Shown: in pieces, positions 50 through 27,837 of the stretch | Layout: each line of letters begins with the position of its first letter | How positions within the stretch are numbered: the stretch's first letter is position 1 | Origin: an uncultured Ardenticatenaceae bacterium | GTDB taxonomy: Bacteria > Chloroflexota > Anaerolineae > Promineifilales > Promineifilaceae | Length of the DNA stretch: 27,878 bases | Assembly (NCBI GenBank): GCA_964600035.1 | Contig: CAZRIB010000005.1 | Coordinates: forward strand, 1-27,878 | Reading direction: 5' to 3' | Translations under genes and position numbers: made by a program | The notes under the pieces: model-generated | The model's database searches: none | Told to the model about the DNA's origin: nothing | What the model saw: the letters and a program-made list of their open reading frames with translations, nothing else

Positions 50-1585
50 GTGGCTCAAATAAGTCGTCGAGAATTTCTAAAATTATTGCCAGCCGTTCCA
101 CTTTTCAAAGTGACATGGCCATACCTGGTTACAGAGGCAGCAAAATATCAGCAAGACCCTAACAGCCCCAACATTCTCTTCCTTATCTTCGACACATTTT
201 CCGCCAAACATATTTCCATGTACGGCTACCAAAGGGAGACCACACCCCACCTGGCTGCATTGGCAGAGCGGGCAACCATCTTCCACAGCCACAGGGCAGC
301 GGCAAACTTCACCTCACCGGGGACATCCTCCATTTTGACCGGAACATACCCCTGGACGCACCGTGCCTTTCATTTGCACGGCCTTGTTAATGAGGCATAT
401 GCTGACAAAAACATCTTTAGTCTGCTGCCAGACCATTACCATAAAGCCGCCTACACCCACAATTTGCTGGTTTTTTCCCTGCTGCACCAATTTCGCAGCC
501 ACGTAGATGATTTGCATAAAACCCGGGAACTGTGTTTGTCTGACACGCAGTTTGCCGACCGCCTTTTCTTTAATGATTACAGCCCGGCATTTTGGGGTGA
601 ATGGCTGGCCCTGCGCGGCGGCGCAACACCGCCATCTTCTTTGTTCCTGTCTATGGTAGATCGGGGACGGCGTTTTTTGAATAAACACCAGATTGAAGCG
701 GAATATGCGGCAGATTACCCGCGCGGTATTCCCAATTTGCACAGCCTGTATTTCCGGCTGGAAGATGCGATTGACTGGATTGGTGAGCAGGCGGCAGGCT
801 TGCCACGGCCGTATTTTGGATACTTCCATCTGCTGCCACCTCATGAACCTTACACCACCCACCGCGACTACATTGATGTATTTGCCGATGGCTGGCAGCC
901 CGTTGAAAAAGAAAAGGGTTTTGTTGGCGAAGGTATTCCACAGGCAAAGCTAAACAAAGAGCGGCGGGCTTATGATGAGTATATTGCTTTTGTGGATGCT
1001 GAAATCGGCCGTTTGTTCGCTAAAATGGAAGCGGATGGCGTGTTGGATAACACCTATGTGGTGTTGACATCCGATCATGGTGAACTGTTTGAGCGCGGCA
1101 TTCGCGGCCATGTGACGCGGGCATTGTATGACCCGCTTTTGCATGTGCCGTTGATGATTGTGAAACCCGGTCAGCAAAAACGGGAGGATGTATTTAGCCA
1201 TACCAGTGCGGTTGATTTGCTGCCTACCTTTTTGCATGTAACCGGCCAGCCCGTTCCAGAGTGGGCAGAAGGGCAGATTTTGCCCACATTTACAGATGCC
1301 GCACCAGACGGTCAACGGCCGACTTTTTCACTTGAGGCAAAAAGTAATGCCAAACAAGGCCCGTTAACCAAAGCGACAGCCACGATGGTAAAGGATGATT
1401 ACAAGCTGATTTACTATTTTGGGTATCGGCCAGGGGAAGAGTTGTATGAGTTGTTTGATTTGAAAAATGACCCTGAGGAGTTGACGAATTTGGTTGATGT
1501 GAAAACGGCCGTATTCGCCGACATGCAGACCGAACTAAAACGTAAAATCGAAAGCGTCAACGAACCATTTGCGCACAAATCCTGA
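50..1585 (+). CDS. Tat-exported sulfatase-like hydrolase/transferase (alkaline phosphatase superfamily)
   Basis: N-terminal SRREFLK twin-arginine motif. It has the PNILFLIFDT metal-binding start, TSPGTSSILTG in place of CxPxRxxxLTG, HLLPPHEPY, VVLTSDHGE and LHVPLMI. GTG start preceded by GGAGCA (39-44). Confidence 0.85.
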   Translation: MAQISRREFLKLLPAVPLFKVTWPYLVTEAAKYQQDPNSPNILFLIFDTFSAKHISMYGYQRETTPHLAALAERATIFHSHRAAANFTSPGTSSILTGTYPWTHRAFHLHGLVNEAYADKNIFSLLPDHYHKAAYTHNLLVFSLLHQFRSHVDDLHKTRELCLSDTQFADRLFFNDYSPAFWGEWLALRGGATPPSSLFLSMVDRGRRFLNKHQIEAEYAADYPRGIPNLHSLYFRLEDAIDWIGEQAAGLPRPYFGYFHLLPPHEPYTTHRDYIDVFADGWQPVEKEKGFVGEGIPQAKLNKERRAYDEYIAFVDAEIGRLFAKMEADGVLDNTYVVLTSDHGELFERGIRGHVTRALYDPLLHVPLMIVKPGQQKREDVFSHTSAVDLLPTFLHVTGQPVPEWAEGQILPTFTDAAPDGQRPTFSLEAKSNAKQGPLTKATATMVKDDYKLIYYFGYRPGEELYELFDLKNDPEELTNLVDVKTAVFADMQTELKRKIESVNEPFAHKS

Positions 1586-1630
1586 AACCAACCTGAGTCA
1601 CCTGACACTTTTTTAACAACAAGGAATGGG

Positions 1631-1737
1631 ACACAGATTGACACAGATAAACTCCGTAATCCGTAATTCGTAATTCGTGTGCTCTACCTCTGGTAACTTC
1701 GTCGGAAAACGGTATACGGACTTCGGGTTACGGGTGC
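1631..1737. repeat. Intergenic tandem repeats: ACACAGAT x2, (C/T)CGTAAT x3.5, TACGG-type inverse units
   Basis: ACACAGATTG ACACAGATAA (1631-1650), CCGTAAT CCGTAAT TCGTAAT TCGT (1654-1678) and TACGGACTTCGGGTTACGGG (1715-1734). The last matches the reverse complement of 23404-23421 at 16/18 nt. Confidence 0.8.
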
Positions 1738-1771
1738 TAGATACCAACAAAACAAGAGGAAATTCGGTAAT

Positions 1772-2554
1772 ATGGTAGCCAATTTAAGAAACCTGTATCA
1801 CTATCGAGAAATGCTCGGCATGTGGATCTTCCGTGAGATTCGCGTGCGTTACAAACAATCCTTTTTAGGCGCGGCCTGGGCTATTTTGCAGCCATTGGTA
1901 CTCATGCTCATGTTTACCCTGGTTTTTTCAGTCATGGCGCGCTTCCCCACAGATGGCATTCCATACCCCATCTTTTCCTACACCGCCCTGCTGCCCTGGA
2001 CACTGTTTGCCACATCCGTCAGTTTTGGTGTGTCATCGCTCATCAACAACATGACGCTGGTGACAAAAACGTACTTCCCCAGGGAAGTGCTGCCGATGGG
2101 TGTCATTGGTGCGGCGCTGTTTGATTACCTGATCGCGTCGTCCATTTTCATTGCCATGCTCATCTATTACCAAATTCCGCTGACAATTCACTTTTTGTGG
2201 ATTCCTGTCTTTTTGGTGGTTCAAATTTTCTTGATGATGGGCATTATTTTACTGGGATCGGCCGTAACGGTGTTTTACCGTGATGTGCGTTTTGTGGTGC
2301 CGCTGCTGGTGCAGTTGTGGCTCTATGCCACGCCTATCATTTACCCGGTAACGCTTGTTCCAGAGGCGTATCGCACGTTGTATATGCTTAACCCGATGGC
2401 GGGCATTGTGGAATCTTACCGGCAGGTAATCTTGCGTGGGCAGCCGCCGAATGCGCTGGATTTGGGTCTGGCTGCGGCCGTTTCCGTTAGCCTGTTTGTG
2501 GTGAGTTACATCATTTTTAAGAAACTGGAAGTACGCTTTAACGACATCATATAA
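1772..2554 (+). CDS. wzm: ABC-2 type polysaccharide export permease (Wzm)
   Basis: REIRVRYKQSFLGAAWAILQPL, YATPIIYP and LNPMAGIVESYR motifs; about six TM segments; adjacent to Wzt. Confidence 0.93.
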   Translation: MVANLRNLYHYREMLGMWIFREIRVRYKQSFLGAAWAILQPLVLMLMFTLVFSVMARFPTDGIPYPIFSYTALLPWTLFATSVSFGVSSLINNMTLVTKTYFPREVLPMGVIGAALFDYLIASSIFIAMLIYYQIPLTIHFLWIPVFLVVQIFLMMGIILLGSAVTVFYRDVRFVVPLLVQLWLYATPIIYPVTLVPEAYRTLYMLNPMAGIVESYRQVILRGQPPNALDLGLAAAVSVSLFVVSYIIFKKLEVRFNDII

Positions 2555-2561
2555 AATGTGA

Positions 2562-2623
2562 CAGGTGGCAGGTGGCAGGTGGCAGGTGGCAAGGAACATG
2601 ACCTGCCACCTGCCACTTGCCAC
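2562..2623. repeat. Heptamer (CAGGTGG)n tandem repeat in inverted arrangement forming a 23-bp hairpin
   Basis: CAGGTGG x4 (2562-2589) followed by ACCTGCC ACCTGCC ACTTGCC AC (2601-2623). 2566-2588 pairs with 2601-2623 with one G:T, leaving a 12-nt loop. Confidence 0.92.
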
Positions 2624-2675
2624 GTACTTTGCTTTAATCGTTAATCATCAATCTTTGTTTTTGAAGGAATTATCT

Positions 2676-3953
2676 ATGAAACCTGCGGTACGATTTGAAA
2701 ATGTATCGAAGAAGTATGTCTTGGGAACCGGGCATTCCAGCCTGGGCGCATTAATTAAAACGCCGGTCAAACGGCTGTTGGGACGTCCTGTGCCGGAACC
2801 CCAGGTGTTGTGGGCGTTGAAAGATGCTTCGTTCGATATTGAACCGGGTAAGGCTTTGGGTTTGATTGGGCCAAATGGCTCTGGCAAGACGACTTCGCTG
2901 AAGCTGCTCTCTAAAATTACGTTTCCGACGTCGGGGCGCATTTCGGTAAACGGCCGTATCTCCGCACTCATCGAACTAGGGGCAGGCTTCCATCCAGACC
3001 TCACCGGGCGCGAAAACGTCTACCTCAACGCCACCATATTAGGCATGAAACGCCACGAAATTGATGCCCGTTTTGACCGCATCGTAGAATTTTCCGGGCT
3101 GGAGCGATTCATCGACACACCCGTCAAACGGTACTCATCCGGCATGTACGTGCGGCTGGGCTTTTCCGTAGCCGCCCATGTGGAGCCAGACATCTTGCTG
3201 GTAGATGAAGTATTGGCAGTTGGCGACGCCCAATTCCGCCAAAAGTGTGCCCGCCGCATTGAAGAGCTGCAAAAAAAGGGCACAACCATCGTATTTGTTG
3301 CCCACAACCTTTACCTGGTAAAAAGCGTGTGTGATGAAGCCGTCTTTTTGCTAAACGGACAAATTCAGGACAAAGGGCCGGTAGATGACGTAATTGGCAG
3401 CTATGAAAAGTACCTGCATGAGCTGCAAGCCCGTTCATTGGAAGAAGAAAAAGTAGACCCCTTGCGCAGCGACAGACAGCGCGGCGTGACCACAAATTTG
3501 AAGATAACCGGCATTGATGTGTTAAATGAGCAGGGTAAAAAGCCGGAACAGTTCCACCACGATGAACCTGTGGAAATCCGCATTCATTACCAGGCAAAAA
3601 AGAAGCTGGAAAAGCCAAATGTCATTTTGCGCATTCGCCGGGCAGATGGCACAACAGCGGCCATGATTCGCACAGCTGATTATGGGATGGCACTGGATCC
3701 ATTGGAAGATAACGGCACGATTTCTTTGAAAATTGACCCCATTCAGTTGGCGGGCGGGGCTTATCTGATTTCTGCTTCATTGCAGGGGCCGGTGGATGGT
3801 GTTGGATTGGCCTGGGCAGATTCTCGCTGGTTCCAGGTGTCGGGTGTGAGTGTGAGCTTTGAAGAAAGCGGCGGCGTTTTTGTGCCGAATTTGGCGGCTG
3901 CCAAAGTGATCCCCGGGAATGTGAATCCGCGGGGTGAAAGTGTGCGGGTATAA
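2676..3953 (+). CDS. wzt: Polysaccharide export ABC ATPase (Wzt) with C-terminal Wzt_C carbohydrate-binding extension
   Basis: Walker A GPNGSGKTT, signature YSSGMYVRLGF, Walker B ILLVDEVLAVGD, and a ~170-aa C-terminal extension. Start moved to ATG 2676 (after AAGGA) because the ORF-track extension from 2565 only translates an intergenic repeat hairpin. Confidence 0.93.
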   Translation: MKPAVRFENVSKKYVLGTGHSSLGALIKTPVKRLLGRPVPEPQVLWALKDASFDIEPGKALGLIGPNGSGKTTSLKLLSKITFPTSGRISVNGRISALIELGAGFHPDLTGRENVYLNATILGMKRHEIDARFDRIVEFSGLERFIDTPVKRYSSGMYVRLGFSVAAHVEPDILLVDEVLAVGDAQFRQKCARRIEELQKKGTTIVFVAHNLYLVKSVCDEAVFLLNGQIQDKGPVDDVIGSYEKYLHELQARSLEEEKVDPLRSDRQRGVTTNLKITGIDVLNEQGKKPEQFHHDEPVEIRIHYQAKKKLEKPNVILRIRRADGTTAAMIRTADYGMALDPLEDNGTISLKIDPIQLAGGAYLISASLQGPVDGVGLAWADSRWFQVSGVSVSFEESGGVFVPNLAAAKVIPGNVNPRGESVRV

Positions 3954-3959
3954 GGAGCA
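3954..3959 (+). promoter_or_regulatory. Recurrent Shine-Dalgarno variant GGAGCA
   Basis: GGAGCA lies 3-5 nt before the starts at 50 (GTG), 3965 (TTG), 13562 (TTG), 22111 (ATG) and 27241 (ATG), at positions 39, 3954, 13552, 22101 and 27232. Confidence 0.65.
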
Positions 3960-3964
3960 GGCAT

Positions 3965-5659
3965 TTGGCTAACCGGAAAAAGACGTTGTTGGTTGGATTG
4001 GATGCGGCGTGCTGGTCTTTTGTACGGCCGTTACTGGACGCTGGCAAAATGCCCGCCCTTTCTCGTTTAATGGCTGGCGGCACAGCCGGAACGCTGGACT
4101 CTACCATGCCAGCCCTGACACCGGCGGCGTGGTCGTCCATTATTACCGGCAAAAATCCGGGGAAACACGCCATCTTTGACATGACGCGCCGCCGTCCGCA
4201 CAGCTATGAGAGTATGCCGGTAAACGGCCGTATGCGGTTAGGCACACCATTTTGGAAACGGCTCAATGAGGCAGGCCTTCGCGTGGGGCTGGTCAACATT
4301 CCCTTTACCTACCCGCCGGATGAGGTGGCAGGCTTTGTGGTTCCCGGCTTTGGCGCACCGGGGTCTGTGTCCAATTTGGTGTACCCGCGTGAAGCACTGG
4401 CCGATATTGAAGAAAAGTACGGCCGTTACGAACCTGTGGTGTCACCGGAGCTGTTAAGAAGCGGCCGTTACCAGGACATTTACGAAGCCGAAGCCCACCA
4501 TCAGGCCAACCAGGTTGCCATTGCCATTGACCTGGCCGCCAAATACGATGTGGACGTGCTGGCCATCAACCTGATGCTGCTGGACCACATGAACCACAAA
4601 ATGCCCGACATAGAGCGGGTAGAAGCGGCCATTTTGCAGTTGGACAAAGATTTGCAGGCTTTGCTGGATGGCTTTGTGCCGGATAACGTGATGGTCATTT
4701 CTGACCACGGCACGCGGCGGGTAAAAGGGGACTTTTTGCTGCACGTTTGGCTGCGGGACAATGGCTATTCTGTGCAAAAGAAACGCCTGCCGACGGAAAA
4801 AGCGGCCATTGTGAACTGGATTTTTGTGCAGTGGCTGCAGCGTCACCGGGGCTGGTCTGGTTTTGGTGAAAAGGCTGCCCGCTTTTTGCTGCGAAAAATG
4901 GTGGCGGCACTGCCTGCGGGCTGGCTGAAGGGATTTTGGGCGCGGGTAGAGCGGGATATTCCCGGCGCGCAGGTGTATGCCGAATTTAGTGAGGAACTGG
5001 ATTATGAAAAGACGCGGGTTTATCCCGGCGCATCATATTCCAGTGTGTTGTACTTTAATGTGAAAGGGCGCGAGCCGCAGGGTGTGGTTGATCCGGCAGA
5101 GGTGGCGGCGCTGGCGGCGGAGATTCGGCAGAAGTTGACGGCCGTTACCGACCCGGACAGCGGCGAACCCTTGTTTACGGCCGTATACACCGCCGACGAG
5201 CTTTACACAGGTGCGGCCAAAGTCATTGCGCCAGACATCATCATAGACAGCTACGCCGCAAAGTGGAACATTCTCTCCACTTTTCGGCGGGGGGCGCACG
5301 CCGAAGCGCTGCGAGACCGGTATTTTGCCAACAATTTCAAGGATTTTGGGCATCACAGCCGCGATGGCATTTTTGTGTTTGCCGGGGAAGCTTTTCGCAG
5401 TGACGGTTCTTTTGGCACGGCGGGGTCTGTGATGGATGTGCCGGCGACGCTGCTGCATTTGTGTGGTGTGCCTGTGCCGAATGATTGGGACGGCCGTTCC
5501 CTGACTGAGACGTTTAATCCGGCTTTTCTGGCTGCCCATCCTTTGACTTGCCAGCCCGGTGATGCGGAAACGGCCGTGACGTTTGATGATGGGCTGTACA
5601 GTGATGAGGAAAATGACGAGATTTTTAGCCACTTGCGGGCATTGGGTTACGTGGACTAG
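3965..5659 (+). CDS. Alkaline phosphatase family protein (type I phosphodiesterase/nucleotide pyrophosphatase-like)
   Basis: LLVGLDAA, STMPALTPAAWSSIITGKNPGKHAIFD, VMVISDHG, GHHSRDGIF and C-terminal LRALGYVD. TTG start after GGAGCA (3954-3959). Confidence 0.85.
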   Translation: MANRKKTLLVGLDAACWSFVRPLLDAGKMPALSRLMAGGTAGTLDSTMPALTPAAWSSIITGKNPGKHAIFDMTRRRPHSYESMPVNGRMRLGTPFWKRLNEAGLRVGLVNIPFTYPPDEVAGFVVPGFGAPGSVSNLVYPREALADIEEKYGRYEPVVSPELLRSGRYQDIYEAEAHHQANQVAIAIDLAAKYDVDVLAINLMLLDHMNHKMPDIERVEAAILQLDKDLQALLDGFVPDNVMVISDHGTRRVKGDFLLHVWLRDNGYSVQKKRLPTEKAAIVNWIFVQWLQRHRGWSGFGEKAARFLLRKMVAALPAGWLKGFWARVERDIPGAQVYAEFSEELDYEKTRVYPGASYSSVLYFNVKGREPQGVVDPAEVAALAAEIRQKLTAVTDPDSGEPLFTAVYTADELYTGAAKVIAPDIIIDSYAAKWNILSTFRRGAHAEALRDRYFANNFKDFGHHSRDGIFVFAGEAFRSDGSFGTAGSVMDVPATLLHLCGVPVPNDWDGRSLTETFNPAFLAAHPLTCQPGDAETAVTFDDGLYSDEENDEIFSHLRALGYVD

Positions 5660-5665
5660 AACAAA

Positions 5666-6964
5666 ATGGTAACAAAGACAATGGCGGTACAACAGAAAAC
5701 GGCCGTTTCTCCCAAGGCGCTAAAAGTGGCATATGTTATGCAAAACGTCGGCGTCGATCTGGCGTCTGATTTGGGGCAGGTGATTCTTATTCGCCATACG
5801 GTGCAGGAGTTGATGGCACGCGGCCATGATGTGGATGTAATTACGCTGAACGGCCGTGATGTGTTGGGCATTGATGACATTCACTATCCCAAAGAAACAT
5901 GGCAGGCTAAACAAGGTGTTGCCGGGACACGGCCGTTTCGTTGGTTAGAAAGTGCCATTCGCCGCTTGCAGCGCGAAACAAAATTTCCCTATCTGGCCTT
6001 GTTCGACTCCTTCCGCTTTTACCAGGCCACCCGCCGAGCTTTGGCACACTATGACATTTGCCACGAATACGCCGGGCTGCTGAGCGTTGGGGCGGCCTAT
6101 GCCTGCAAAAAATCAGGCAAGCCCTACGTCATCACCGCCGATGCGGACTTACTGTTGGAACACGCCGTTGCCGGTGAGCCGCTGCATGGTATTCAACAAA
6201 AAATGGCGCGTTGGGCGGCCAAAACCAATTACCGGCTGGCCGACAAAATTATTTGTGTCTCTGAACCAGCGCGGAAAAGTCTGGTGAATCATTGGGATGT
6301 AGACCCGGCCAAAATTGAGGTGATTCCCAATGGGGTTGATGTAGCATTGTTTAGCCAGCCAGTGGATAAAACGGCCGTTCGCCGCCAGTGGCACATTGCC
6401 CCAAACGTCCCCGTCATCATGTTTGTGGGCGGATTTCAGCCCTGGCATGGCATTGATGTGCTGGTCAACAGCTTCGCCGACCTGCTGGTTTCCTTTCCGG
6501 ATGCACAACTGCTGCTGGTTGGCGATGGCCCCGCACGCGAAAATATTGAAGCTCTGGTACAATCCCGGCAGTTAAGCAGCAACGTCCACATGACTGGCCG
6601 CATCCCCCACGCTTACATTCCGTCCCTGCTTGCCATCGCTGATGTCGTCACCATTCCCTACCCCCGGCTGCCCAGAGAACTGTGGTTTTCGCCGCTTAAA
6701 CTGTATGAATACATGGCCGCCGGCAAGGCCATTGTGGCTTCACGTGCCGGGCAAATTGGAGAGGTGTTGGTAGACCGGCAAAATGGGTTGTTGGTAGAAC
6801 CGGGCGATGAAGATGCCTTGACGGAAGCAATTGTTACGCTGCTCCGCCATCCTGAACTGCGTGCCAAATTGGGTTTGCGGGCACAGCAGCAGGCTAAAAC
6901 GGAGCATTCCTGGGGCCGTCAGGTGGAGCGTCTGGAAGCGGTGTATTGGGAGATTGTCGGTTGA
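5666..6964 (+). CDS. Glycosyltransferase family 4 (GT-B)
   Basis: VIPNGVD, MFVGGFQPWHGI and FSPLKLYEYMAAGKAIVAS motifs. Confidence 0.92.
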   Translation: MVTKTMAVQQKTAVSPKALKVAYVMQNVGVDLASDLGQVILIRHTVQELMARGHDVDVITLNGRDVLGIDDIHYPKETWQAKQGVAGTRPFRWLESAIRRLQRETKFPYLALFDSFRFYQATRRALAHYDICHEYAGLLSVGAAYACKKSGKPYVITADADLLLEHAVAGEPLHGIQQKMARWAAKTNYRLADKIICVSEPARKSLVNHWDVDPAKIEVIPNGVDVALFSQPVDKTAVRRQWHIAPNVPVIMFVGGFQPWHGIDVLVNSFADLLVSFPDAQLLLVGDGPARENIEALVQSRQLSSNVHMTGRIPHAYIPSLLAIADVVTIPYPRLPRELWFSPLKLYEYMAAGKAIVASRAGQIGEVLVDRQNGLLVEPGDEDALTEAIVTLLRHPELRAKLGLRAQQQAKTEHSWGRQVERLEAVYWEIVG

Positions 6965-7090
6965 AGAGTGAGGATTGAAGATTAAAGATTGAGGATTAAA
7001 GATTAAAAGATTGGAGATTGGGGATTGGGGATGTCTTTAATCGTTAATCATCAATCATCATTCATTAATCATCATTCATTATTCATTATT
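6962..7090. repeat. Heptamer GATTRRR tandem array followed by a T(T/C)A(A/T)TC(A/G) array (STRR-like)
   Basis: GATTGAA GATTAAA GATTGAG GATTAAA GATTAAA..GATTGGA GATTGGG GATTGGG, then TTAATCG TTAATCA TCAATCA TCATTCA TTAATCA TCATTCA TTATTCA. Confidence 0.9.
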
Positions 7091-7107
7091 TACTGGAAAA
7101 GTGTGTC

Positions 7108-8457: not shown

Positions 8458-8575
8458 TTATTGAGTCTGCCGAAAAAACCGCAAAGAGCACAAAGAAACG
8501 CCAGAGAAAAAATTTGTGAAATTCGTGAAATTCGTGGCTTTTTTCGGGGCAGTCATATTTGCACTTTTTAGTTTT

Positions 8576-8656
8576 GGACGCAGATTTTCAGGATTAACGC
8601 AGATTATCTTGCAATTATGTTGACACAATCCTGAGAATCAGCGTTAATCTGCGTCC
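8576..8656. repeat. 81-bp element with 11-bp perfect terminal inverted repeats (GGACGCAGATT)
   Basis: GGACGCAGATT at 8576-8586 and AATCTGCGTCC at 8646-8656. Internal blocks TCAGGATT/AATCCTGA and AACGC(A/T)GATT are also complementary. Confidence 0.75.
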
Positions 8657-8701
8657 CTTTTGCGCTTTTCTGAAATATGTGAATGCTTACCCAGTAACAA
8701 T

Positions 8702-10183: not shown

Positions 10184-10188
10184 CAACT

Positions 10189-10258: not shown

Positions 10259-10333
10259 ACCTGTTAAGTACACTATTTAGTGATGAGCTAATAATCTACG
10301 TTTGTCATCAAATTTTCTTTGGAGGATTGTTGA

Positions 10334-14926: not shown

Positions 14927-14931
14927 CGACC

Positions 14932-18808: not shown

Positions 18809-18921
18809 TTTCTGTAACGGGTATGTAAGCGGCAAGCAGTATGACTTGCAGCCTGCAAACCTGTAACGTGTCGTTGCTTTCATCCATTAACCATCAATCA
18901 TGACTTCACCAAAAAAGAAAT

Positions 18922-18993
18922 TGCGGAGGCGCAAAGGACGCGGAGAATTTGAAGTTATCAGAGAAAAATCTTTGTGTTCTCTGCGCCTCTGCG
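18922..18993. repeat. 9-mer-based imperfect inverted repeat (23-bp stem)
   Basis: TGCGGAGGCGCAAAGGACGCGGA (18922-18944) pairs with TTTGTGTTCTCTGCGCCTCTGCG (18971-18993); most deviations are G:U-compatible. Confidence 0.8.
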
Positions 18994-19049
18994 GTGAATT
19001 TAACCTTTTTTCAATGAACTCAATCTTTATTTTCAAAGGTGACTGACCT

Positions 19050-19874: not shown

Positions 19875-19880
19875 CCTGTG

Positions 19881-20798
19881 ATGGTGAAGCTTTCTGTTGT
19901 GATTGTTAGCTGGAATACGGCCGATTTGCTGCGGGCATGCTTGCGCTCTGTTTATGAGCATCCGCCAACGGTGACGTTTGAGGTTTGGGTGGTGGATAAT
20001 GCGTCGCATGATGGTAGTGCGGAGATGGTGCGGCGTGAGTTTCCGCAGGTGAAACTGGTGGCGAAGGATGTGAATGGGGGGTTTGCGGCAGGAAATAATG
20101 AGGCGCTGCCGCTGTGTGCCGGGGAGTATGTGCTGTTGTTGAATCCTGATACGGTGGTGAAGCCGAATGCGCTGCAAGCGTTGGTGGATTTTTTGGATGA
20201 AACGCCGGATGCAGGCGCGGCGGGGTCGATGCTGTTGAACCCGGATGGTTCTTTGCAGCCGTCGGCTTTTCCGGCGCCGACGCTGCGGCGGGAGTTGTGG
20301 CGGTTGTTTCATTTGGACAGGATACGGCCGTATGGCATTTACCACATGCAGCAGTGGGACACGGCCGTTCCCCGTGAAGTAGACGTACTGCAAGGGGCAT
20401 CCTTGCTCATTCGCCGCGACATTTTGAACCAGATTGGCTTGTTCGACACAACCTACTTTATGTACTCCGAAGAAGTCGATTTATGCCGTCGGCTGCAGTT
20501 GGCTGGCTGGCGGTTGTATTGGGTTCCTGCTTCTCGCGTGGTGCATTATGGCGGGCAAAGCACCCGGCAAATTGCAGAGCAGATGTTTATTCAGCTTTAC
20601 CGGGGCAAGCTGCTTTATTTTCGCAAGCATTACGGCCGTTTTCATGCGTGGGCATACAAAGCAGTTTTGGCACTGGCTTCCGTGGCGCGGCTGGCACTCA
20701 CCCCGCTGGTCGTGGTGCAGTCCGCCGAAAAACGGCAGCAAAGCCTGACATTGGCGCGGTATTATGCCCATCTTGTCAAAGCCATTCCCTCCTTTTAA
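19881..20798 (+). CDS. Glycosyltransferase family 2 (WbbL-like)
   Basis: LSVVIVSWN, VVDNASHDGS, GFAAGNN, LLLNPD and YFMYSEEVDLCRR. ATG 19881 or GTG 19878. Confidence 0.92.
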   Translation: MVKLSVVIVSWNTADLLRACLRSVYEHPPTVTFEVWVVDNASHDGSAEMVRREFPQVKLVAKDVNGGFAAGNNEALPLCAGEYVLLLNPDTVVKPNALQALVDFLDETPDAGAAGSMLLNPDGSLQPSAFPAPTLRRELWRLFHLDRIRPYGIYHMQQWDTAVPREVDVLQGASLLIRRDILNQIGLFDTTYFMYSEEVDLCRRLQLAGWRLYWVPASRVVHYGGQSTRQIAEQMFIQLYRGKLLYFRKHYGRFHAWAYKAVLALASVARLALTPLVVVQSAEKRQQSLTLARYYAHLVKAIPSF

Positions 20799-22066
20799 TG
20801 AACGTTATGACCGAATCCAAGATGAAAATTTTGTTTTTGACCCAAATTATTCCATATCCCCCGGATGCCGGGCCGCGTGTCAAAACGTGGCACGTGCTGC
20901 GCTATCTTATTGAGCGAGGGCATGAGGTGACGCTGGCTTCTTTTGTGCGGCCAGATGAGGAGCGCCATGTACCTGTGTTGGCGGAGCTGTGCCATGCGGT
21001 GCATACCGTTCCCATTCGCCGGTCGCGGGTGGCTGATGTGGGTTTTTGGCTGCGCAGTCAGGTGACGAGACGGCCGTTTTTGATTGAACGGGATGATTTG
21101 CCGGGTATGCGCCAATTGGTGCGCCGCCTGCTGGCGGAGACACCTTTTGATATTGTGCATGCCGACCAACTGACGATGACGCAGTTTGCGCTGGATGCGC
21201 TGGAAATGGGGGAGAAACGGCCGTACACGATTTTCGACGCCCACAACGCCACCTGGACAATTTCGGCGCGTATGGCAGAAAACATGCCCTGGTTTCTTAG
21301 ACCTGTTGTCAAGCTGGAAACTGCCCGTATTCAAAAATATGAGGCCATGTTGGTCGAGCAGTTAGACCATACGATGGTGGTGATTGCCCCTGATCGGGAA
21401 GCGCTGCTGGCTGCAGCCGGAAACGGCCGTGCCGCCCGGTTAGCCCCAAAAATCTCCGTTATTCCCATTGCCGTTGACACAAACGTTTTGCAGCCTGTCA
21501 AACGCAGCCCGGCATCGCTCAACATTTTGACATTGGGGTCATTAAATTATCCGCCCAACGCCGATGGCATCCGCTGGTTTGTGCGGGACGTTTTTCCGCT
21601 TATCCGGCAGGAAGTACCGGATGTTACATTGACCGTCATCGGGAAAAACCCGCCTGCTGATTTTGTGCGCTGGGCTGAACAGGAACCGGCCGTTTTTGAT
21701 GTGACAGGCTACGTGGAAGATTTGACGCCCTACATGGAAAAGGCCGCCTTGATGGTTGTGCCGGTGCGGGCTGGCGGCGGTATGCGTGTGCGTTTACTGG
21801 AGGCTTTTTCCCGGGCTATGCCCACTGTGACCACCACGATTGGTCTGGAAGGGATTGAAGCGGAATCCGGGCGGGAGGTGTTGGTGGCAGATTCGCCGGA
21901 AGAGTTTGCGCGGGCGGTGCTTCATTTGCTGCGTAACCCTGCTTTGCAAGATCATTTGGCGGAACACGGCCGTATCCTGGCACAAAAGAAATATGACTGG
22001 CGTGTTGTCCTGGCAAAAATGGATGCCGTCTATCAAAAAGCCAGACAGCCATTCTCTAACCATTAA
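20798..22066 (+). CDS. Glycosyltransferase family 4
   Basis: MKILFLTQIIPYPPDAG, TLGSLNYPPNADG and GGGMRVRLLEAF. Start at ATG 20798 (TAATG overlap) or 20807/20822; the ORF-track extension from 20483 is rejected. Confidence 0.9.
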   Translation: MNVMTESKMKILFLTQIIPYPPDAGPRVKTWHVLRYLIERGHEVTLASFVRPDEERHVPVLAELCHAVHTVPIRRSRVADVGFWLRSQVTRRPFLIERDDLPGMRQLVRRLLAETPFDIVHADQLTMTQFALDALEMGEKRPYTIFDAHNATWTISARMAENMPWFLRPVVKLETARIQKYEAMLVEQLDHTMVVIAPDREALLAAAGNGRAARLAPKISVIPIAVDTNVLQPVKRSPASLNILTLGSLNYPPNADGIRWFVRDVFPLIRQEVPDVTLTVIGKNPPADFVRWAEQEPAVFDVTGYVEDLTPYMEKAALMVVPVRAGGGMRVRLLEAFSRAMPTVTTTIGLEGIEAESGREVLVADSPEEFARAVLHLLRNPALQDHLAEHGRILAQKKYDWRVVLAKMDAVYQKARQPFSNH

Positions 22067-22110
22067 TCTTTCATCCATCAATCATCAACCTTTATTCACA
22101 GGAGCAACAG

Positions 22111-23403
22111 ATGCTTAACCGCGTGTGGGAAAATCCTCGCCGAACATTAACAGCCATCATTATCGTGGCGGTGCTGCTGCGGGTGGGGGCAGCGCTGTAT
22201 ATTGGCAACACCATCGAAGCGCTACCCGGCATTTTTGATGAAGTGTCTTACCATACGCTGGCGCTGCGGGTGCTGGATGGGCATGGTTTTTCTTTTGGTG
22301 AACGGTGGTGGCCGGCAACGGCCGCAAACGCCCCAACCGCACACTGGTCCTTTTTGTACACGCTGTACCTTGCCGGAATTTATGCCCTGGTTGGCGAATC
22401 GCCTTTGGTGGCGCGGGTGATTCAGGCGGTGTTGGTGGGGATTGCCATGCCCTGGCTGGCGTTTCGGTTGGCACTGCTGGTGTTTGCGCAGTGGGGGCAA
22501 AAGTATGCGGAAAAGGTTGGGCTGGCGGCGGCGGCGGTAACGGCCGTGTACATTTATCTCTTTTACTATGCGGCTGCACTCATCACCGAAAGTTTCTACA
22601 TCACCGCCATCATGGCTTCGTTCTACTTTGCCTTTCGTATCCAGAAGGCCCAAAATGCCCGGCTGTCTGATTGGGTGTGGCTGGGTGTTTGTTTAGGGGT
22701 GACTGTGCTGCTGCGGCAGTTGTTTTTGTTGTTTGTGCCGTTTTTGCTGCTGTGGCTGTGGTGGGCAGTGCGCCCGTCGTTGTGGCGGCTGGTCTTGCCT
22801 CTTGTTCTCATCGGTATGATGGTGGCCCCTTTTACCGTGCGTAATCAGCGCGTATTCGGCCGTTTTGTCCTGCTCAATACCAACTCCGGGTATGCTTTCT
22901 TTTGGGGCAACCACCCCCGGTACGGCACAAAATTCATTCCTATTTTGCCTTCCCGCGAATATTACGAAATGATTCCCGATGAACTGTTGGCGCAAGGGCT
23001 AAATGAAGCGGAACTGGAGTCTGAACTTTTATCTTTGGGCTTGGGGTTTGTTTTTGATGATTTCGGCCGTTACATCAAACTGTCATTAAGTCGCATTCCT
23101 GCTTACTTTGTTTTCTGGCCGTCGTCACAATCATCTACCATTTCCAACATTTCCCGCGTGGGCAGTTTTGGCCTGTTTTTGCCTTTCATGGTGTATGGGC
23201 TGGTGTTGGGTTTGCGCAAACGGGCTGCTTCATTTGCCGATTGGCTGCGTATGCCGCAAACGCTGCTGGTGCTGTTCATGTTGTTTTACACAGCCCTGCA
23301 CGTGCTTACGTGGACACTGATTCGTTATCGGATTCCAATTGATGCGATATTGATTTTGTATGCCGGTTTAGCGCTGGTAACAATTGAAGAAAAAATCTTT
23401 TAG
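22111..23403 (+). CDS. ArnT/PMT (GT39-like, GT-C) membrane glycosyltransferase
   Basis: Polytopic, with IFDEVSY acidic loop, ITESFY, LLRQ, PFTVRN and RYRIP. GGAGCA at 22101-22106. Confidence 0.78.
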   Translation: MLNRVWENPRRTLTAIIIVAVLLRVGAALYIGNTIEALPGIFDEVSYHTLALRVLDGHGFSFGERWWPATAANAPTAHWSFLYTLYLAGIYALVGESPLVARVIQAVLVGIAMPWLAFRLALLVFAQWGQKYAEKVGLAAAAVTAVYIYLFYYAAALITESFYITAIMASFYFAFRIQKAQNARLSDWVWLGVCLGVTVLLRQLFLLFVPFLLLWLWWAVRPSLWRLVLPLVLIGMMVAPFTVRNQRVFGRFVLLNTNSGYAFFWGNHPRYGTKFIPILPSREYYEMIPDELLAQGLNEAELESELLSLGLGFVFDDFGRYIKLSLSRIPAYFVFWPSSQSSTISNISRVGSFGLFLPFMVYGLVLGLRKRAASFADWLRMPQTLLVLFMLFYTALHVLTWTLIRYRIPIDAILILYAGLALVTIEEKIF

Positions 23404-23468
23404 CGTAATCCGAAGCCCGTACACCCGTGATTGGGATGCAGATAACGGGTTACGGGCAACGGATTACG
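23404..23468. terminator. Long imperfect hairpin between convergent genes; candidate bidirectional terminator built from CCGTAAT/TTACGG heptamers
   Basis: CGTAATCCGAAGCCCGTACACCCGTGAT (23404-23431) pairs with ATAACGGGTTACGGGCAACGGATTACG (23442-23468). It starts immediately after the + strand stop (23403) and ends 8 nt before the - strand stop (23477). There is no clear U-tract. Confidence 0.55.
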
Positions 23469-23476
23469 GATACCGT

Positions 23477-24589
23477 CTACATACCAAAACAGTAATTTGT
23501 AAAGAAGCAGATGCGCCAGCTTATCCAGCCGATTTGTGAGAACAGGTACCACAGGTATGCGCCAATGAGCAGCACTCCGGCGTAACGGCCGATTGCCCAG
23601 CGCCGTACGATTAACAAAAACAACAGCGCTATCACCGTTGCAAACAAGAGAATAACAGAAGATTCCAGGTTTTCTGTAACAACCTGCATATTTTCACCGC
23701 GCCACAAAATGATGAACACCCAGGGCAGGCCCAGCCCAATGGCAATATCGAAGATGTTGGAGCCGACAGCATTGGCAATGGCCATGTCGCCTTGTCCTTT
23801 TCTGGCAACGACAATGGAACTCATCAGGTCGGGAATGCTGGTTCCGGCGGCCAGAATGGTGAGAGCGATGATGACTTCTGGTACACCGATGGCGTGGGCA
23901 ATTTGTACGGCCGATTCCACCATGAGGTGTGAAAGCAAGGCCAGAAAAATGATGGAGACGGCAAAGTTGAAGATGAGGAGATGCGGCCGTTTCCGCAAAT
24001 CGGCAAAAAAGAGCGACAACGTTTTGTCCAGCACATTGCGCCATGTCCACCCGCTGGCACGCAGGGCTTGTTGGGGACTTTCCTCCTCCTCCTCATTTTG
24101 CGCATTATCCGCCTCAATTTCATAAGGCAGCCACTTCTTCCACAGGCCAAACGAGAACAAGTAAACGACATACAAGCTCACATACATGAGCGCGTCAACC
24201 AGAGTGATGGTGCCATCTCGAAACGTAAACAGCAGCAGCAAGATGCAGACAATGTAAAAAATCAGGTCACGGATGACAGGCTGCCATGTCAGCACAGCCC
24301 GTTTAACCAATGCCGAAGCCCCAATAATGACCAAAATGTTAAAAATGGCTGACCCCACAATTGTGCCAGCACCCATTGCCTGCTGTTCCTGCACCCGAAA
24401 CAGCGCCAAAATGGAAACAAACAACTCCGGTGCAGATGAGCCGACTGCCATGAACGTAGCCCCGGCAATATCGGAGGAAAGTTTCAGCCGGTCAGAGATA
24501 ATTTCCAGCGTTTCAACAAAATAGACTTCTACAACCTGGGCGAGCAGGTAAAAAGCCAGTAACAGTTCCAAAATCCACAGGATGATCAT
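23477..24589 (-). CDS. Calcium/sodium antiporter (CaCA family, NCKX-like)
   Basis: Alpha-1 repeat GATFMAVGSSAPELF...GTIVGSAIFNIL and alpha-2 repeat ILAAGTSIPDL...GDMAIANAVGSNIFDI. Two 5-TM halves joined by an acidic loop (NEEEEES). Confidence 0.9.
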   Translation of the reverse strand: MIILWILELLLAFYLLAQVVEVYFVETLEIISDRLKLSSDIAGATFMAVGSSAPELFVSILALFRVQEQQAMGAGTIVGSAIFNILVIIGASALVKRAVLTWQPVIRDLIFYIVCILLLLFTFRDGTITLVDALMYVSLYVVYLFSFGLWKKWLPYEIEADNAQNEEEEESPQQALRASGWTWRNVLDKTLSLFFADLRKRPHLLIFNFAVSIIFLALLSHLMVESAVQIAHAIGVPEVIIALTILAAGTSIPDLMSSIVVARKGQGDMAIANAVGSNIFDIAIGLGLPWVFIILWRGENMQVVTENLESSVILLFATVIALLFLLIVRRWAIGRYAGVLLIGAYLWYLFSQIGWISWRICFFTNYCFGM

Positions 24590-24955
24590 GATTACTTTTT
24601 TGCTTCCTTGTTTGTTGGTGTGTGCCTGTTTTGTACGGCGAGATTTTTACAGGGTCAGAAGGATACACGCAAATTGAAAAACACAAAAACTGAAGGCGGG
24701 TTGGTGTAAGCCGGTTGGTAAGAAAGGATCGTTACTATTCCACTGTAAAAGCCAACAATGATAAATAGCTTGGTTACATGTTGAACTTTTTTCTGAAATG
24801 GGGGAGCCATCGTGAACGGCTGGGCAAACCACAAAAGGTGTTTGAGTGTGAGAACATCTTTTTCCTTGTGGGCTGCTTGTGTAATTGGCAAAAAATCCCG
24901 GGTGTTTTTGTGCTAATTGCATCACACATTGTTGGCGCCATGAATTTATCTGCTT

Positions 24956-26182
24956 ATGGATGTACTCTTTATTGTTCCCTATGTGCCCAATTTGGTGAGG
25001 ACACGCCCCTATAACTTTATTCGAGCATTGAGTGAGCGCGGTAACCGGGTGACGGTGTTGACTGTGCGCGCCAGTGAAGCGGATGAGGCGGATTTGGCTG
25101 CGCTGCGAAAGATGGTGTATGCGGTGGAGGCGGTGTCTTTGCCTGTTTGGCGTTCCCTGCTGAATTGTTTGCCGGCTTTGTTGTCGGGTGTGCCTTTGCA
25201 AACACGCTTTTCGTGGGATGCGGGTCTGTTTTCGCGGTTAAACGGCCGTTTCCCCTTTGACGTGGTTCATGTCGAACACCTTCGTGGCGTGCGCTATGCC
25301 CTGCATCTCAAAAAACACACCCAACTACCCGTTGTATGGGACAGCGTAGACTGCATTACCCATTTGTTTAAGCAGGCCGCTGCACAAAGCAAAAACAATA
25401 TGCTTCGCTGGCGCAGCCGCTTTGAATTGGGGCGCACAGAGCGGTATGAGCGGTGGCTTTTGGACAAATTTGACCAAATTTTGGTGACGTCGCATCTGGA
25501 TAGGGAAGCGATGCAGTCGCTGAACCCCCAACAGCCAGCACCCATTACGGTGGTTCCCAATGGGGTGGATTTGAACTATTTTCGGCCAGACACGGCCGTT
25601 ACCCGGCAAGAAAAATCACTCGTTGTCAGCGGCAAGATGAGCTACCACGCCAATATCAGCATGGTGCTGCATCTTGTGGAAAAAATTATGCCGCATGTGT
25701 GGCAAGAACAGCCAGACGTGACCCTCACCATTGTGGGCAAAGACCCGACCAAAGAGGTGGTGGCATTGGCTGAACATCCAAACATTACAGTAACGGGGAC
25801 GGTGCCGGAGATACGGCCGTATCTCCAACAAGCCGCCATCGCCCTCACCCCACTCACTTACGGCGCAGGTGTCCAAAACAAAGTACTGGAAGCAATGGCC
25901 TGCGGCACACCCGTTGTCAGCACAACACGCGCCATCAAACCGCTGGGTGTCCAGCCGGGGCGCGCTCTCCTGGCTGCCGATGACCCGGCCCAATTTGCCC
26001 GGCACGTCCTGGAACTGCTGGCAAACCCGGCACAACGCGCCCAAATCGGCCGTGCCGCCAGAGCATACGTAGAACAGAACCACAACTGGCACACACTGGC
26101 TGGAGACCTGGAGCAAATTTACCAACAAGCAAAACATCAACACAACCCGGTATTCAAACAAGCCGCCACAGCCGCAAAATAG
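24956..26182 (+). CDS. Glycosyltransferase family 4
   Basis: VVPNGVDLNYF, VSGKMSYHANI and GAGVQNKVLEAMACGTPVV. Confidence 0.92.
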   Translation: MDVLFIVPYVPNLVRTRPYNFIRALSERGNRVTVLTVRASEADEADLAALRKMVYAVEAVSLPVWRSLLNCLPALLSGVPLQTRFSWDAGLFSRLNGRFPFDVVHVEHLRGVRYALHLKKHTQLPVVWDSVDCITHLFKQAAAQSKNNMLRWRSRFELGRTERYERWLLDKFDQILVTSHLDREAMQSLNPQQPAPITVVPNGVDLNYFRPDTAVTRQEKSLVVSGKMSYHANISMVLHLVEKIMPHVWQEQPDVTLTIVGKDPTKEVVALAEHPNITVTGTVPEIRPYLQQAAIALTPLTYGAGVQNKVLEAMACGTPVVSTTRAIKPLGVQPGRALLAADDPAQFARHVLELLANPAQRAQIGRAARAYVEQNHNWHTLAGDLEQIYQQAKHQHNPVFKQAATAAK

Positions 26183-26253
26183 GTCATTTTCAACGAATTA
26201 GAATCGTTGCAATTAGTTTGTGTAATGGAACAATAGCAAAGGTGTAGCAGTCC

Positions 26254-27231
26254 ATGATCATTGTGCAATCCCCATTAAGAGTTAGTTTGTTCGGCGGCGG
26301 AACCGATTTCGCCGACTTTTACAAGGAACATGGCGGGTGTGTCCTGTCCTCCGCCATCGACAAATTCATCTTCGTCACCATAAAACAGCGTTTTGATGAC
26401 AAAATTCGCGTTGGCTACACACGAACAGAAATGGTAGACAGCATCGATGAAATTCAACACGAATTGATTCGAGAAGCACTCCGGGTTACGGGCATCCAAA
26501 AAGGGGTGGAAATTACCACAATGGGCGACATCCCCTCCGAAGGTTCGGGGCTGGGTTCTTCCAGCACAGTTACCGTAGGGGCTTTGCATGCCATGTATGC
26601 CTACCAAAAGGAATTGGTGCTGTCGGAGCGGTTGGCGCGGGAAGCCTGCTACATTGAAATTGAAAAATTAGGAAAGCCCATTGGTATCCAAGACCAATAC
26701 ATTGCGGCTTATGGTGGTTTGCGTTTTATGGAATTTATGCCGGATGGGCGGGTAGTTGCTAATCGTGCTGTCTTTGATGACCATACGCTGCGCCGTTTGA
26801 ATGAAAACCTGCTTTTGTTCTTTACAGGTGTTACGCGCAAAGCCGATAACATTCTTTCAGAACAAAAAAGCAACATTCAGGATAAAACATCAATTTTGTG
26901 CCAGATGAAATCCATTGCTTACACAGCGTTTCAGGAACTGCAAAAAGGGCATTTTCGGGCGATTGGTGAGCTTTTGGATGAGAGCTGGCAGTTGAAGAAG
27001 CGGCTGGCCAGCCAAATTAGCAACGGTGTGCTGGATGAGATGTATGAAACGGCAAAGGCGGCCGGGGCAATTGGCGGCAAAATTTCAGGCGCGGGCGGCG
27101 GCGGTTTTTTGTTGGTTTATGTGCCTAAAACACATCATGAGGATGTGCGGCAGGCGTTGAGTCATTTGCAAGAATTACCGTTTCGATTGGGGCAGGATGG
27201 CAGTAAGGTCATTTTTGATTATCAACGATGA
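26254..27231 (+). CDS. hddA: D-glycero-alpha-D-manno-heptose-7-phosphate kinase (GHMP kinase)
   Basis: [31 protein letters not shown] and [12 protein letters not shown]; adjacent to gmhA. Confidence 0.85.
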
Positions 27232-27240
27232 GGAGCAGCG

Positions 27241-27837
27241 ATGAATCACGTAAGACATTATTTTTCGGAAATAACAGAGACTTTGACGCGCATTGATGAA
27301 GGCCCGATTAATCAGGTGATTGGTTTGCTGCATGAGGCACGGGTAAACGGCCGTCAAGTGTTCATCATGGGCAACGGCGGCAGTGCATCCACCGCATCCC
27401 ATTTTGTATGCGACCTGGCCAAAAACACCCGCCAGCCAGATTGGCCGCATTACCGCGTTATCGGCCTTACAGACAATATGGCTATCTTTTCTGCCTATGC
27501 CAACGATGAAGGGTATGAAAACGTCTTTGCCATGCAGCTCGCCAATCTGGTACAGCCGGGAGATGTCGTTATCGGCATTTCAACCAGCGGCAACTCGCAG
27601 AATGTATTGCGTGGCATTGCCCTGGCCAATGAAAAAGGGGCTACAACAGTCGGTTTTACCGGTTTCGATGGCGGTAAATTGGCAGGAATGGTTGATATTC
27701 ATTCCCACACACCCAGTTATTGCATTGAACACGTCGAAGATATTCACTTGATGCTGGAGCATTTAATTACCAAAGTGCTGCGGGAGATGACAGAAACCGT
27801 TGCTGTTGAGCAATGTCTTGGCACATCTGTGTCATAA
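27241..27837 (+). CDS. gmhA: Phosphoheptose (sedoheptulose-7-phosphate) isomerase, SIS domain
   Basis: [44 protein letters not shown] and EDIHLMLEH. Confidence 0.88.

Follow-up and report, generated by a model that had tools for sequence, protein, structure and literature searches.

A highly iterated octamer palindrome with family-wide dialects and a site-anchored GC skew in Anaerolineae (Chloroflexota)

The palindrome in the window and across the genome

The stretch of DNA analyzed here, called the window (27,878 nucleotides [nts], contig CAZRIB010000005.1 of assembly GCA_964600035.1, from an uncultured Ardenticatenaceae bacterium), is occupied from 1 to 27878 by a cluster of genes for polysaccharide or glycan biosynthesis, nearly all on the plus strand. 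The genes encode at least five GT4-type glycosyltransferases, two sulfatases, one protein of the phosphodiesterase family, a PMT_2 mannosyltransferase-like protein, a BNR-repeat protein, and the ATPase of a Wzt-type ATP-binding cassette transporter. Scattered through these genes are exact copies of the 8-bp palindrome ACGGCCGT, the subject of this report, which an earlier note on this DNA had likened to HIP1 (GCGATCGC), the highly iterated palindrome (HIP) of cyanobacteria.

The window contains 53 exact copies of ACGGCCGT, the first starting at 805 and the last ending at 27354, or about one per 525 bp (Table 1). Dinucleotide shuffles of the window gave an expectation of 0.46 copies, and the largest number in any shuffle was 3. 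The GC content of the window is 51.8%, and 14 of the copies extend to AACGGCCGTT. All 53 lie within long open reading frames (ORFs) and are read in all three frames, 26 as ACG GCC GTn (Thr-Ala-Val), 17 as nAC GGC CGT (any amino acid followed by Gly-Arg), and 10 as nnA CGG CCG Tnn (Arg-Pro). Our recount thus reproduced the values in the earlier note, which had listed 53 copies from 805 to 27354 against about 0.5 expected, at least 14 of the longer form, about 52% GC, and the same 26/17/10 split with every copy in a coding sequence (CDS). Its description of the further CGGCCG cores as mostly one-off variants was also right (20 have a single change in an outer base, and the other two are GCGGCCGG), but it had put their number at about 18, and there are 22.

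The genome from which the window comes consists of 4.35 Mb in 706 contigs, has a GC content of 52.3%, and is 97% complete; the gene calls that we used are crude and make 87.6% of it coding. It contains 8,329 copies of ACGGCCGT, which is 1.92 per kb or 1,916 per Mb, and the observed-to-expected ratio (O/E) from base composition is 106. No other real 8-mer is as common: the words next in rank are overlaps of ACGGCCGT itself, and the runner-up among palindromic 8-mers has an O/E of 5.8. HIP1 itself is scarce (16 copies; O/E, 0.2). With an order-3 Markov model the O/E of ACGGCCGT was still about 29. With a maximal-order model it was 1.05, but this value is uninformative because the 7-mers on which the model is conditioned are themselves produced by the motif. 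The palindrome is found on every one of the 175 contigs that measure 8 kb or more, at densities from 0.84 to 3.65 per kb, and the density climbs with local GC content. Other 6-mers are also overrepresented in this genome, namely CAAAAA/TTTTTG (5.0-fold), TTTGCC/GGCAAA (4.5-fold), and GGCGGC/GCCGCC (4.3- to 4.6-fold).

By the gene calls, 7,564 copies are in CDSs (1.99 per kb) and 731 are intergenic (1.36 per kb), so that 91% of the copies are in CDSs; the numbers in the three frames are 4163, 2350, and 1051. When synonymous codons were shuffled within genes, the 7,570 copies observed in CDSs fell to 823, and when codons were permuted they fell to 131, leaving 9-fold and 58-fold excesses, respectively. 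These shuffles rule out an artifact of codon or amino acid usage, and the genome-wide presence of the motif rules out a local trait of the glycosyltransferase cluster. Neither of the two outcomes that the earlier note had named as refuting its reading, enrichment at this locus only or loss of the enrichment on correction for codons and amino acids, was therefore seen.

The spacing of the copies is near-exponential, and no periodicity of spacing was found in the genome. Two departures were seen: neighbors less than 50 bp apart are about half as frequent as the exponential predicts (413 versus 758), and inter-site distances that are multiples of 3 are favored.

The palindrome has left an imprint on the proteome. 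Thr-Ala-Val is 7.0-fold more frequent than expected, and in 98% of cases it is ACGGCCGT that encodes it; Asn-Gly-Arg is likewise 7.0-fold above expectation. ACGGCCGT overrides codon choice and even the choice of amino acid. Among the one-off variants in the whole genome, a first base of G or T goes with enrichment (GCGGCCGT, 6.8-fold; TCGGCCGT, 6.7-fold), and inner one-offs occur at 0.2- to 1.7-fold. The commonest inner one-off is ATGGCCGT, which is the product of a C-to-T change at position 2, and its enrichment is modest.

To compare orthologous sites, we aligned rpoB from 27 genomes of the GTDB family to which this genome belongs (160 species genomes in 36 genera; most of the genomes examined are metagenome-assembled genomes [MAGs]). 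Some site positions are common to 8 to 13 of the 27 genomes and recur across genera, with Tyr-Gly-Arg in 13. Where the motif is present, there is a single spelling, GGA CGG CCG TTx for Gly-Arg-Pro-[Leu/Phe] and TAC GGC CGT for Tyr-Gly-Arg, whereas the rpoB genes of other genera use scattered synonymous codons at these places. One position has GRPF in place of GE[PSA]F, an amino acid change that creates the motif. Genomes that use another palindrome, TGCCGGCA (see below), likewise converge in rpoB at Leu-Pro-Ala and Val-Pro-Ala positions. We infer that this convergence and the pattern of one-offs may reflect a drive at the level of the DNA.

Conservation ends within 4 bp of the octamer, and the information in the flanks is at most 0.44 bit per position. 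The flanks have a symmetric logo, GGAA before the motif and TTCC after it, but the two flanks are statistically independent of each other and complementary only at the chance expectation. An extended inverted repeat or hairpin was therefore rejected in spite of the symmetric logo. With such short conservation and no covariation between the two sides, the octamer is not part of a hairpin or of a longer repeat.

We give next to no credence to the notion that there is no special element here, the copies being a by-product of codon or amino acid usage, a mobile repeat (such as a repetitive extragenic palindrome [REP] or a miniature inverted-repeat transposable element [MITE]), or an assembly artifact. 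The maximal-order Markov ratio near 1 and the rise of density with local GC would fit such a view, but it is refuted by the 9- to 58-fold excess that codon-aware nulls leave, by the enrichment of intergenic copies, and by the location of most copies in CDSs with short conservation and flanks that do not covary. Moreover, the same orthologous codons recur in independent assemblies, some of which have only 2 to 9 contigs.

Dialects and candidate methylases across the family

The closest matches to the rpoB gene of this genome are 84 to 87% identical and come from MAGs of Chloroflexota, class Anaerolineae, in agreement with the Chloroflexota-like lineage suggested in the earlier note. The family has at least four dialects, ACGGCCGT, TCGGCCGA, GCGGCCGC, and TGCCGGCA. 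Three have the core CGGCCG and differ only in the outer base pair; in the other the core has switched to GCCGGC. The ACGGCCGT dialect is found in most genera of the family at 1 to 2 copies per kb. TGCCGGCA is the dialect of genera g16 and g20 (3,600 to 8,900 copies; O/E, 108 in genome G015), TCGGCCGA that of g42, g13, and one species of g45 (3,685 to 9,442 copies), and GCGGCCGC that of all three species of g22 (10,600 to 12,700 copies). The forms with A..T and T..A as the outer pair coexist in g10, g7, G052, and G062; elsewhere each genome of the family has one dialect, and the remaining words are at or below expectation.

No iterated 8-mer was found in the genomes sampled from g15, g6, and g51, one per genus, and the known dialect words have low whole-genome counts throughout these three genera. 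The three genomes sampled (G014, G134, and G162) have GC contents of 61%, 67.5%, and 57%, whereas those of HIP-bearing genomes are 49 to 55%. On the rpoB tree, this distribution implies that dialects have been switched, and lost, several times. The surveyed dialect words did not reach HIP-level counts in the sister family or other families of the class, nor was there HIP-level enrichment of these words in 398 genomes from about 90 Chloroflexota families outside this one.

Three further observations concern these genomes. Numerous Chloroflexota outside the family (e.g., G223, G233, G245, G281, G383, and G523) have fewer than 10 copies of WCGGCCGW (W, A or T) per 4 to 6 Mb, a scarcity that contrasts in the extreme with this family and looks like classical avoidance of an EagI-type restriction site. 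An 86-kb sample of G021, which has the GCGGCCGC dialect, contains no GCCGGC, and its whole genome has 2 copies of CGCCGGCG; the absence in the sample suggests an NaeI-type restriction system. G015 is assembled as one contig of 3.76 Mb and another of 1.11 Mb, which may be the two replicons of its genome.

HIP1 offers a model for how such a palindrome might be made. In the model of Elhai, transferred to the present case, an orphan methyltransferase would act on the CGGCCG core, and methyl-directed repair or repair of the very-short-patch type would create and maintain the sites. It would suit the three dialects that share this core while the outer base pair varies, and the concentration of one-offs at the outer bases, which is also the rule for HIP1 (PMC4390886). 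The top rank of ATGGCCGT among inner one-offs, a C-to-T product, adds modestly to this side. Yet there was no match to PF00145 (C5 methylases), PF02384, PF07669 (Eco57I-type), or Vsr in the genome, which is 97% complete. Its recognizable methylases number six, four with PF01555 and two with PF02086, and all but one are adjacent to a restriction enzyme, sporadic in the family, or also present in HIP-less genera (Table 1); the remaining one, which is Dam-like, adjoins an ORF of 470 amino acids (aa), in a genome that strongly avoids GATC. Many near-complete, motif-rich genomes of the family have no C5 methylase at all, and Vsr is present in 15 of the 160. We consider this explanation quite unlikely.

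The candidates that we rejected as determinants across the 160 genomes were the 314-aa PF01555 methylase, the DUF1156 methylase, the methylase linked to the TdeIII-like enzyme, the C5 methylases, and Vsr. The DUF1156 methylase was not found in the genomes with the TGCCGGCA dialect (g16 and g20), in g3, or in G016 and G020. Neither in the genome under study nor among the 160 did we find a conserved methyltransferase or Vsr partner of the palindrome, and the link to an orphan CGGCCG- or GGCC-specific methyltransferase that the earlier note had put forward for testing thus found no support. An enzyme of an unrecognized family, or a gene missing from the MAG, may still be a source of methylation. 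In G015, a lone C5 methylase gene is followed directly by a gene for Vsr (C2:3160825-3161952).

Several words are avoided in the genome under study, GTCGAC, GAGCTC, GGGCCC, and CTCGAG most strongly (O/E, 0.01), followed by GATATC (0.07), TTTAAA (0.10), GGTACC (0.12), and GATC (0.28). Among these words, GATATC, GATC, GGGCCC, and GGTACC are predicted targets of the restriction systems. This avoidance matches the BanI-like, TdeIII-like, and EcoRV-like systems and the Dam-like methylase that are encoded on contigs C183, C92, C397, C34, C402, and C295. CGGCCG is the only 6-bp palindrome well above 1 (O/E, 8.3), which is the reverse of what is seen when a restriction site is avoided.

Table 1. Sites in the window and methylases of the genome. 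Positions of sites are those of the window; for variants the first position is given. Empty cells, no entry.
Feature	Position	Strand	Partner or occurrence
ACGGCCGT, copies 1 to 9	805..812, 1505..1512, 2950..2957, 4024..4031, 4224..4231, 4419..4426, 5138..5145, 5177..5184, 5490..5497	.	
ACGGCCGT, copies 10 to 18	5570..5577, 5699..5706, 5850..5857, 5929..5936, 6371..6378, 7139..7146, 7258..7265, 7387..7394, 7405..7412	.	
ACGGCCGT, copies 19 to 27	7870..7877, 7946..7953, 8105..8112, 9139..9146, 9950..9957, 10418..10425, 10668..10675, 11901..11908, 12302..12309	.	
ACGGCCGT, copies 28 to 36	13185..13192, 13795..13802, 14397..14404, 14627..14634, 14855..14862, 15208..15215, 15388..15395, 15983..15990, 16174..16181	.	
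ACGGCCGT, copies 37 to 45	16767..16774, 16947..16954, 17325..17332, 17675..17682, 17762..17769, 20324..20331, 20361..20368, 20632..20639, 21070..21077	.	
ACGGCCGT, copies 46 to 53	21217..21224, 21423..21430, 21966..21973, 22540..22547, 25242..25249, 25592..25599, 25813..25820, 27347..27354	.	
Degenerate copies with CGGCCG core, all (n = 22)	1005..27065	.	
Degenerate TCGGCCGT	1005, 2258, 9228, 22856, 23063, 26046		
Degenerate ACGGCCGA	1315, 11596, 16551, 19917, 23585, 23907		
Degenerate GCGGCCGT	2474, 4461, 10452, 23983		
Degenerate ACGGCCGC	7759, 17364, 22318		
Degenerate CCGGCCGT	21686		
Degenerate GCGGCCGG	16084, 27058		
Methylase, PF01555, 615 aa			Adjoins BanI-like restriction enzyme
Methylase, PF01555, 431 aa			Adjoins TdeIII-like restriction enzyme; 12 of 160 genomes of the family
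Methylase, PF01555, 314 aa			No restriction partner seen; about 16 of 160 genomes, including one HIP-less
Methylase, PF02086, 311 aa			Adjoins EcoRV-like restriction enzyme
Methylase, PF02086 (Dam-like), 286 aa			Adjoins 470-aa ORF without recognizable annotation
Methylase, DUF1156/Zn-ribbon type, 684 aa	Contig C402 (L086:1477-3531)	-	131 of 160 genomes, including HIP-less genera; lacking in TGCCGGCA and some ACGGCCGT genera

GC skew around the sites

The base composition of the flanks changes sign at the palindrome. In the window, the GC skew is +0.239 in the 56 nts before the copies and -0.089 after them, with a mean of +0.067 for the contig. Around all 8,329 sites, the frequencies in the preceding 30 nts are 0.32 for G and 0.21 for C, and the 30 nts that follow are the mirror image; the corresponding skews are +0.22 and -0.21, with T exceeding A before the site and A exceeding T after it. 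This flip, which is +0.20 and -0.19 when set against control words, belongs to the full octamer: it is about 0 at 14 other palindromes, at CGGCCG outside the HIP, and at GGCC, and the flanking skew at one-off variants is about 0.06.

The pattern is the same when the copies are oriented by gene. It is strongest at third codon positions (+0.415 before and -0.36 after), where it is still +0.08 and -0.125 at 200 to 300 bp from the site and where GC content is unchanged, and there is only a slight shift at codon positions 1 and 2. Intergenic copies have the same flip. The independence from gene orientation, the maximum at position 3, and the intergenic copies rule out a cause in transcription or at the protein level. 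The flip is present on both sides in 94% of the contigs, whatever the skew of the contig itself, which also excludes any effect of replication direction that would be confined to one side, such as Okazaki priming.

Between successive copies, the skew forms a sawtooth. Starting at -0.14 to -0.32 right after one copy, it climbs to zero halfway along the gap and to positive values ahead of the next, with an amplitude that increases with the length of the gap. Around isolated copies, it extends for several hundred bp to about 1 kb.

Every dialect has the flip, and it is absent from CGGCCG in HIP-less relatives. For ACGGCCGT, the skews before and after the site were +0.41 and -0.39 in G016 and +0.24 and -0.14 in G010; for TCGGCCGA, they were +0.28 and -0.33 in G050 and +0.15 and -0.15 in G012; for GCGGCCGC in G021, +0.215 and -0.213; and for TGCCGGCA in G015, +0.13 and -0.07. 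The orthologous rpoB positions allow the same codons to be compared with and without a site. At identical positions, the third-codon skew was +0.26 and -0.52 in genomes that carry the site versus -0.05 and -0.14 in those that do not, and the difference was in the same direction at all six positions tested. This comparison rules out a skew that already existed at these places in the genes. The data on the flip therefore point to a process at the level of the DNA that is anchored at the octamer, works to either side of it with opposite strand polarity, and is linked to the dialect.

GGTG- and GAGG-type words are biased about 2-fold toward the site. KOPS (FtsK-orienting polar sequences) around dif have this geometry, in that on each strand the G-rich words are directed at the site. 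Selection could accordingly maintain the octamer as the target of a DNA protein, structural or regulatory, or as a palindromic recombination signal resembling Chi, with the asymmetry of its flanks selected as a polar guide. The orientation bias of words mostly tracks their net content of G minus C (r = 0.82), though, and when we looked for a single polar oligomer as the source of the skew, none stood out. In addition, a skew that peaks at synonymous positions and fades over hundreds of bp would require weak selection of implausible pervasiveness at 8,000 sites. Known Chi sites, for their part, are asymmetric and about ten times rarer. We regard a selected site as very unlikely.

A stronger claim can be made for a DNA uptake sequence (DUS) or uptake signal sequence (USS). 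If a competence receptor preferred the octamer, homologous replacement would spread it by drive, and the skew could come from the fixed polarity of the entering single strand. The uptake sequences of the Neisseriaceae and Pasteurellaceae also have lineage dialects, and the density of about 1 to 2 copies per kb, the location in coding DNA, and the imprint on the proteome would all be expected of such a sequence. The genome encodes ComEC and DprA, but these proteins are near-universal and their presence is uninformative. A role for HIP1 in uptake or transformation is proposed in recent papers (10.1101/2024.09.10.611283; PMC13756078). On the other hand, known uptake words are asymmetric and 9 to 12 nts long, unlike an 8-bp palindrome, no receptor is known, and uptake alone is hard to square with a graded, two-sided skew over several hundred bp. 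On balance, we judge uptake to be unlikely, although its chances are far from negligible.

A possible mechanism and comparison with known systems

The explanation that we prefer, and in which we have moderate confidence, is that ACGGCCGT is the genus dialect of a family-wide HIP system with a site-anchored, bidirectionally polar process of repair or recombination behind it. We infer a factor, a drive, and polar tracts, as follows. A putative sequence-specific DNA-processing factor would recognize the octamer on duplex DNA, and tracts of repair or recombination would start or end there and extend a few hundred bp both ways with a fixed strand polarity. For example, a nick or break at the site might be followed by 5'-to-3' resection or resynthesis, exposing the strand 5' of the site. 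If conversion were biased toward the cognate word, this molecular drive would fix the octamer in every codon context able to spell it and would also alter some amino acids to permit it. A strand-asymmetric substitution bias would enrich each strand in G, and slightly in T, before the site and in C after it; heteroduplex repair could supply such a bias, for instance if C:C mismatches were poorly repaired, but this is speculation. A change in the specificity of the factor would cause the genome to be rewritten into a new dialect. A bolder form of this proposal, of which we are less than half convinced, is that the octamers anchor a previously undescribed housekeeping DNA transaction that recasts the strand composition of nearly the entire chromosome as a sawtooth with a period of about 0.5 kb and drives its own word to saturation.

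Several points weigh against the proposal of an octamer-anchored repair process. No protein for it was found: the recognizable methylases of the genome are linked to restriction enzymes or phyletically unlinked to the palindrome, and neither the C5 methylases (in 60 of the 160 genomes) nor Vsr follows the palindrome through the family. The shift in bases is mainly between C and G, so that deamination alone (C to T or A to G) is insufficient, and purines at third positions are up by about 0.12 upstream. Equilibrium composition cannot separate mutation bias from weak selection at the DNA level. Finally, the data come mostly from MAGs, and the kinship of the genomes inflates the apparent replication across genera.

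To date, HIPs have been regarded as peculiar to cyanobacteria, and three decades of debate have not settled their function. An independent HIP in a second phylum, with four dialects and natural losses among 160 species, makes a search for the machinery by comparative genomics feasible. The sawtooth is a quantitative, directional footprint (two-strand, polar, and several hundred bp long) that constrains the mechanism far beyond what abundance can do. There are also practical consequences. The motif distorts codon usage and amino acid composition (Thr-Ala-Val and Asn-Gly-Arg, each 7-fold), convergent substitutions in marker genes such as rpoB can mislead phylogeny, and the dialects could act as signatures for binning the MAGs of Anaerolineae and for assigning mobile elements to hosts.

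Among known systems, Chi differs: the present word is a palindrome with effects on both sides in 94% of the contigs, not an asymmetric G-rich word co-oriented with replication. REPs and REPINs (REP doublets forming hairpins), with their RAYTs (REP-associated tyrosine transposases), share with it a short palindromic word in thousands of copies, variants between lineages, and presumably a single determinant gene. REPs are extragenic hairpins of 20 to 35 bp, however, whereas the unit here has 8 bp, lies in genes in 91% of cases, and has unpaired flanks whose complementarity is that expected by chance, which also sets it apart from BIMEs (bacterial interspersed mosaic elements) and MITEs. Dcm/Vsr is an example of repair by which the word usage of a genome is shifted toward a short cognate word (related to CCWGG) through a short patch of one-strand resynthesis. 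It differs in needing an m5C methylase and Vsr, which this genome and most of the family lack, and in having a modest effect on word counts, not a 100-fold one. DUS and USS resemble the palindrome in density (overrepresented words at about 1 per kb), location in coding DNA, proteome imprint, and lineage dialects, and accumulation by drive is plausible for both. The difference is that theirs are asymmetric words of 9 to 12 nts for which a receptor and an uptake bias have been demonstrated; the present word is palindromic and known from sequence alone.

The closest likeness is to HIP1, which occurs at 300 to 2,700 copies per Mb with O/E values of 55 to 228 (Elhai, Table 2; PMC4390886), ranges that include the 1,916 per Mb and 106 of ACGGCCGT. 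Both are GC-rich 8-bp palindromes with about 1 to 2 copies per kb and O/E values near 100 that occur in all frames and also in noncoding DNA. In both, orthologous sites are conserved, one-offs are mostly at the outer bases, and the word has been replaced or lost in some lineages. As a dominant 8-mer that is abundant, dispersed, and independent of codons, ACGGCCGT belongs with the HIPs on these grounds. It is not HIP1 proper, given the O/E of 0.2 for GCGATCGC and the noncyanobacterial lineage; its core is CGGCCG, or GCCGGC, in place of CGATCG. The proposal in the earlier note of an independent HIP with a core unlike that of HIP1 is accordingly supported by the core itself, the dispersal, the use of all frames, the codon-aware excess, the orthologous sites, the outer-base one-offs, and the alternate palindromes. 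A further difference is that the association with an orphan methyltransferase for the palindrome or its core, which defines HIP1, was not found in this genome or in the 160 genomes of the family.

In the literature searched, there was no report of ACGGCCGT or TGCCGGCA as iterated palindromes, of any HIP in Chloroflexota, or of a skew around HIP1 or such palindromes. The family-wide dialects, the failure to find a methylase partner, and the site-anchored sawtooth of skew are new here. We also determined the skew at 556 HIP1 sites, mostly on plasmids, from four cyanobacterial plasmids and 13 cyanobacteria-like metagenome contigs. At about 149 to 155 kb of the Nostoc punctiforme plasmid pNPUN01, HIP1 occurs at exact 120-bp intervals within a tandem repeat, and these copies were de-duplicated. 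The skew was +0.077 ± 0.015 from -20 to -3, -0.051 ± 0.016 from +3 to +20, and -0.034 ± 0.011 from +20 to +50. The sign in the innermost bins was the same in all five data sets, and seven control words gave values of about 0. This flip has the same sign but is weak, and we take it as a lead rather than as a result; the skew in the present family is 3 to 5 times stronger and extends for hundreds of bp, versus at most 50 bp in the HIP1 sample. If the octamers do anchor a DNA transaction of the kind proposed above, the flip at HIP1 would make that process the first mechanistic handle on a 30-year-old puzzle.

Cyanobacteria also have alternate HIPs, such as the HIP1 derivative TCGATCGA (Elhai 2015, Table 2), and there too the core is kept, the outer pair is swapped, and one word dominates each genome. 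By comparison, the present system has four dialects within a single family, a switch of core from CGGCCG to GCCGGC, and genomes in which A..T and T..A forms are mixed.

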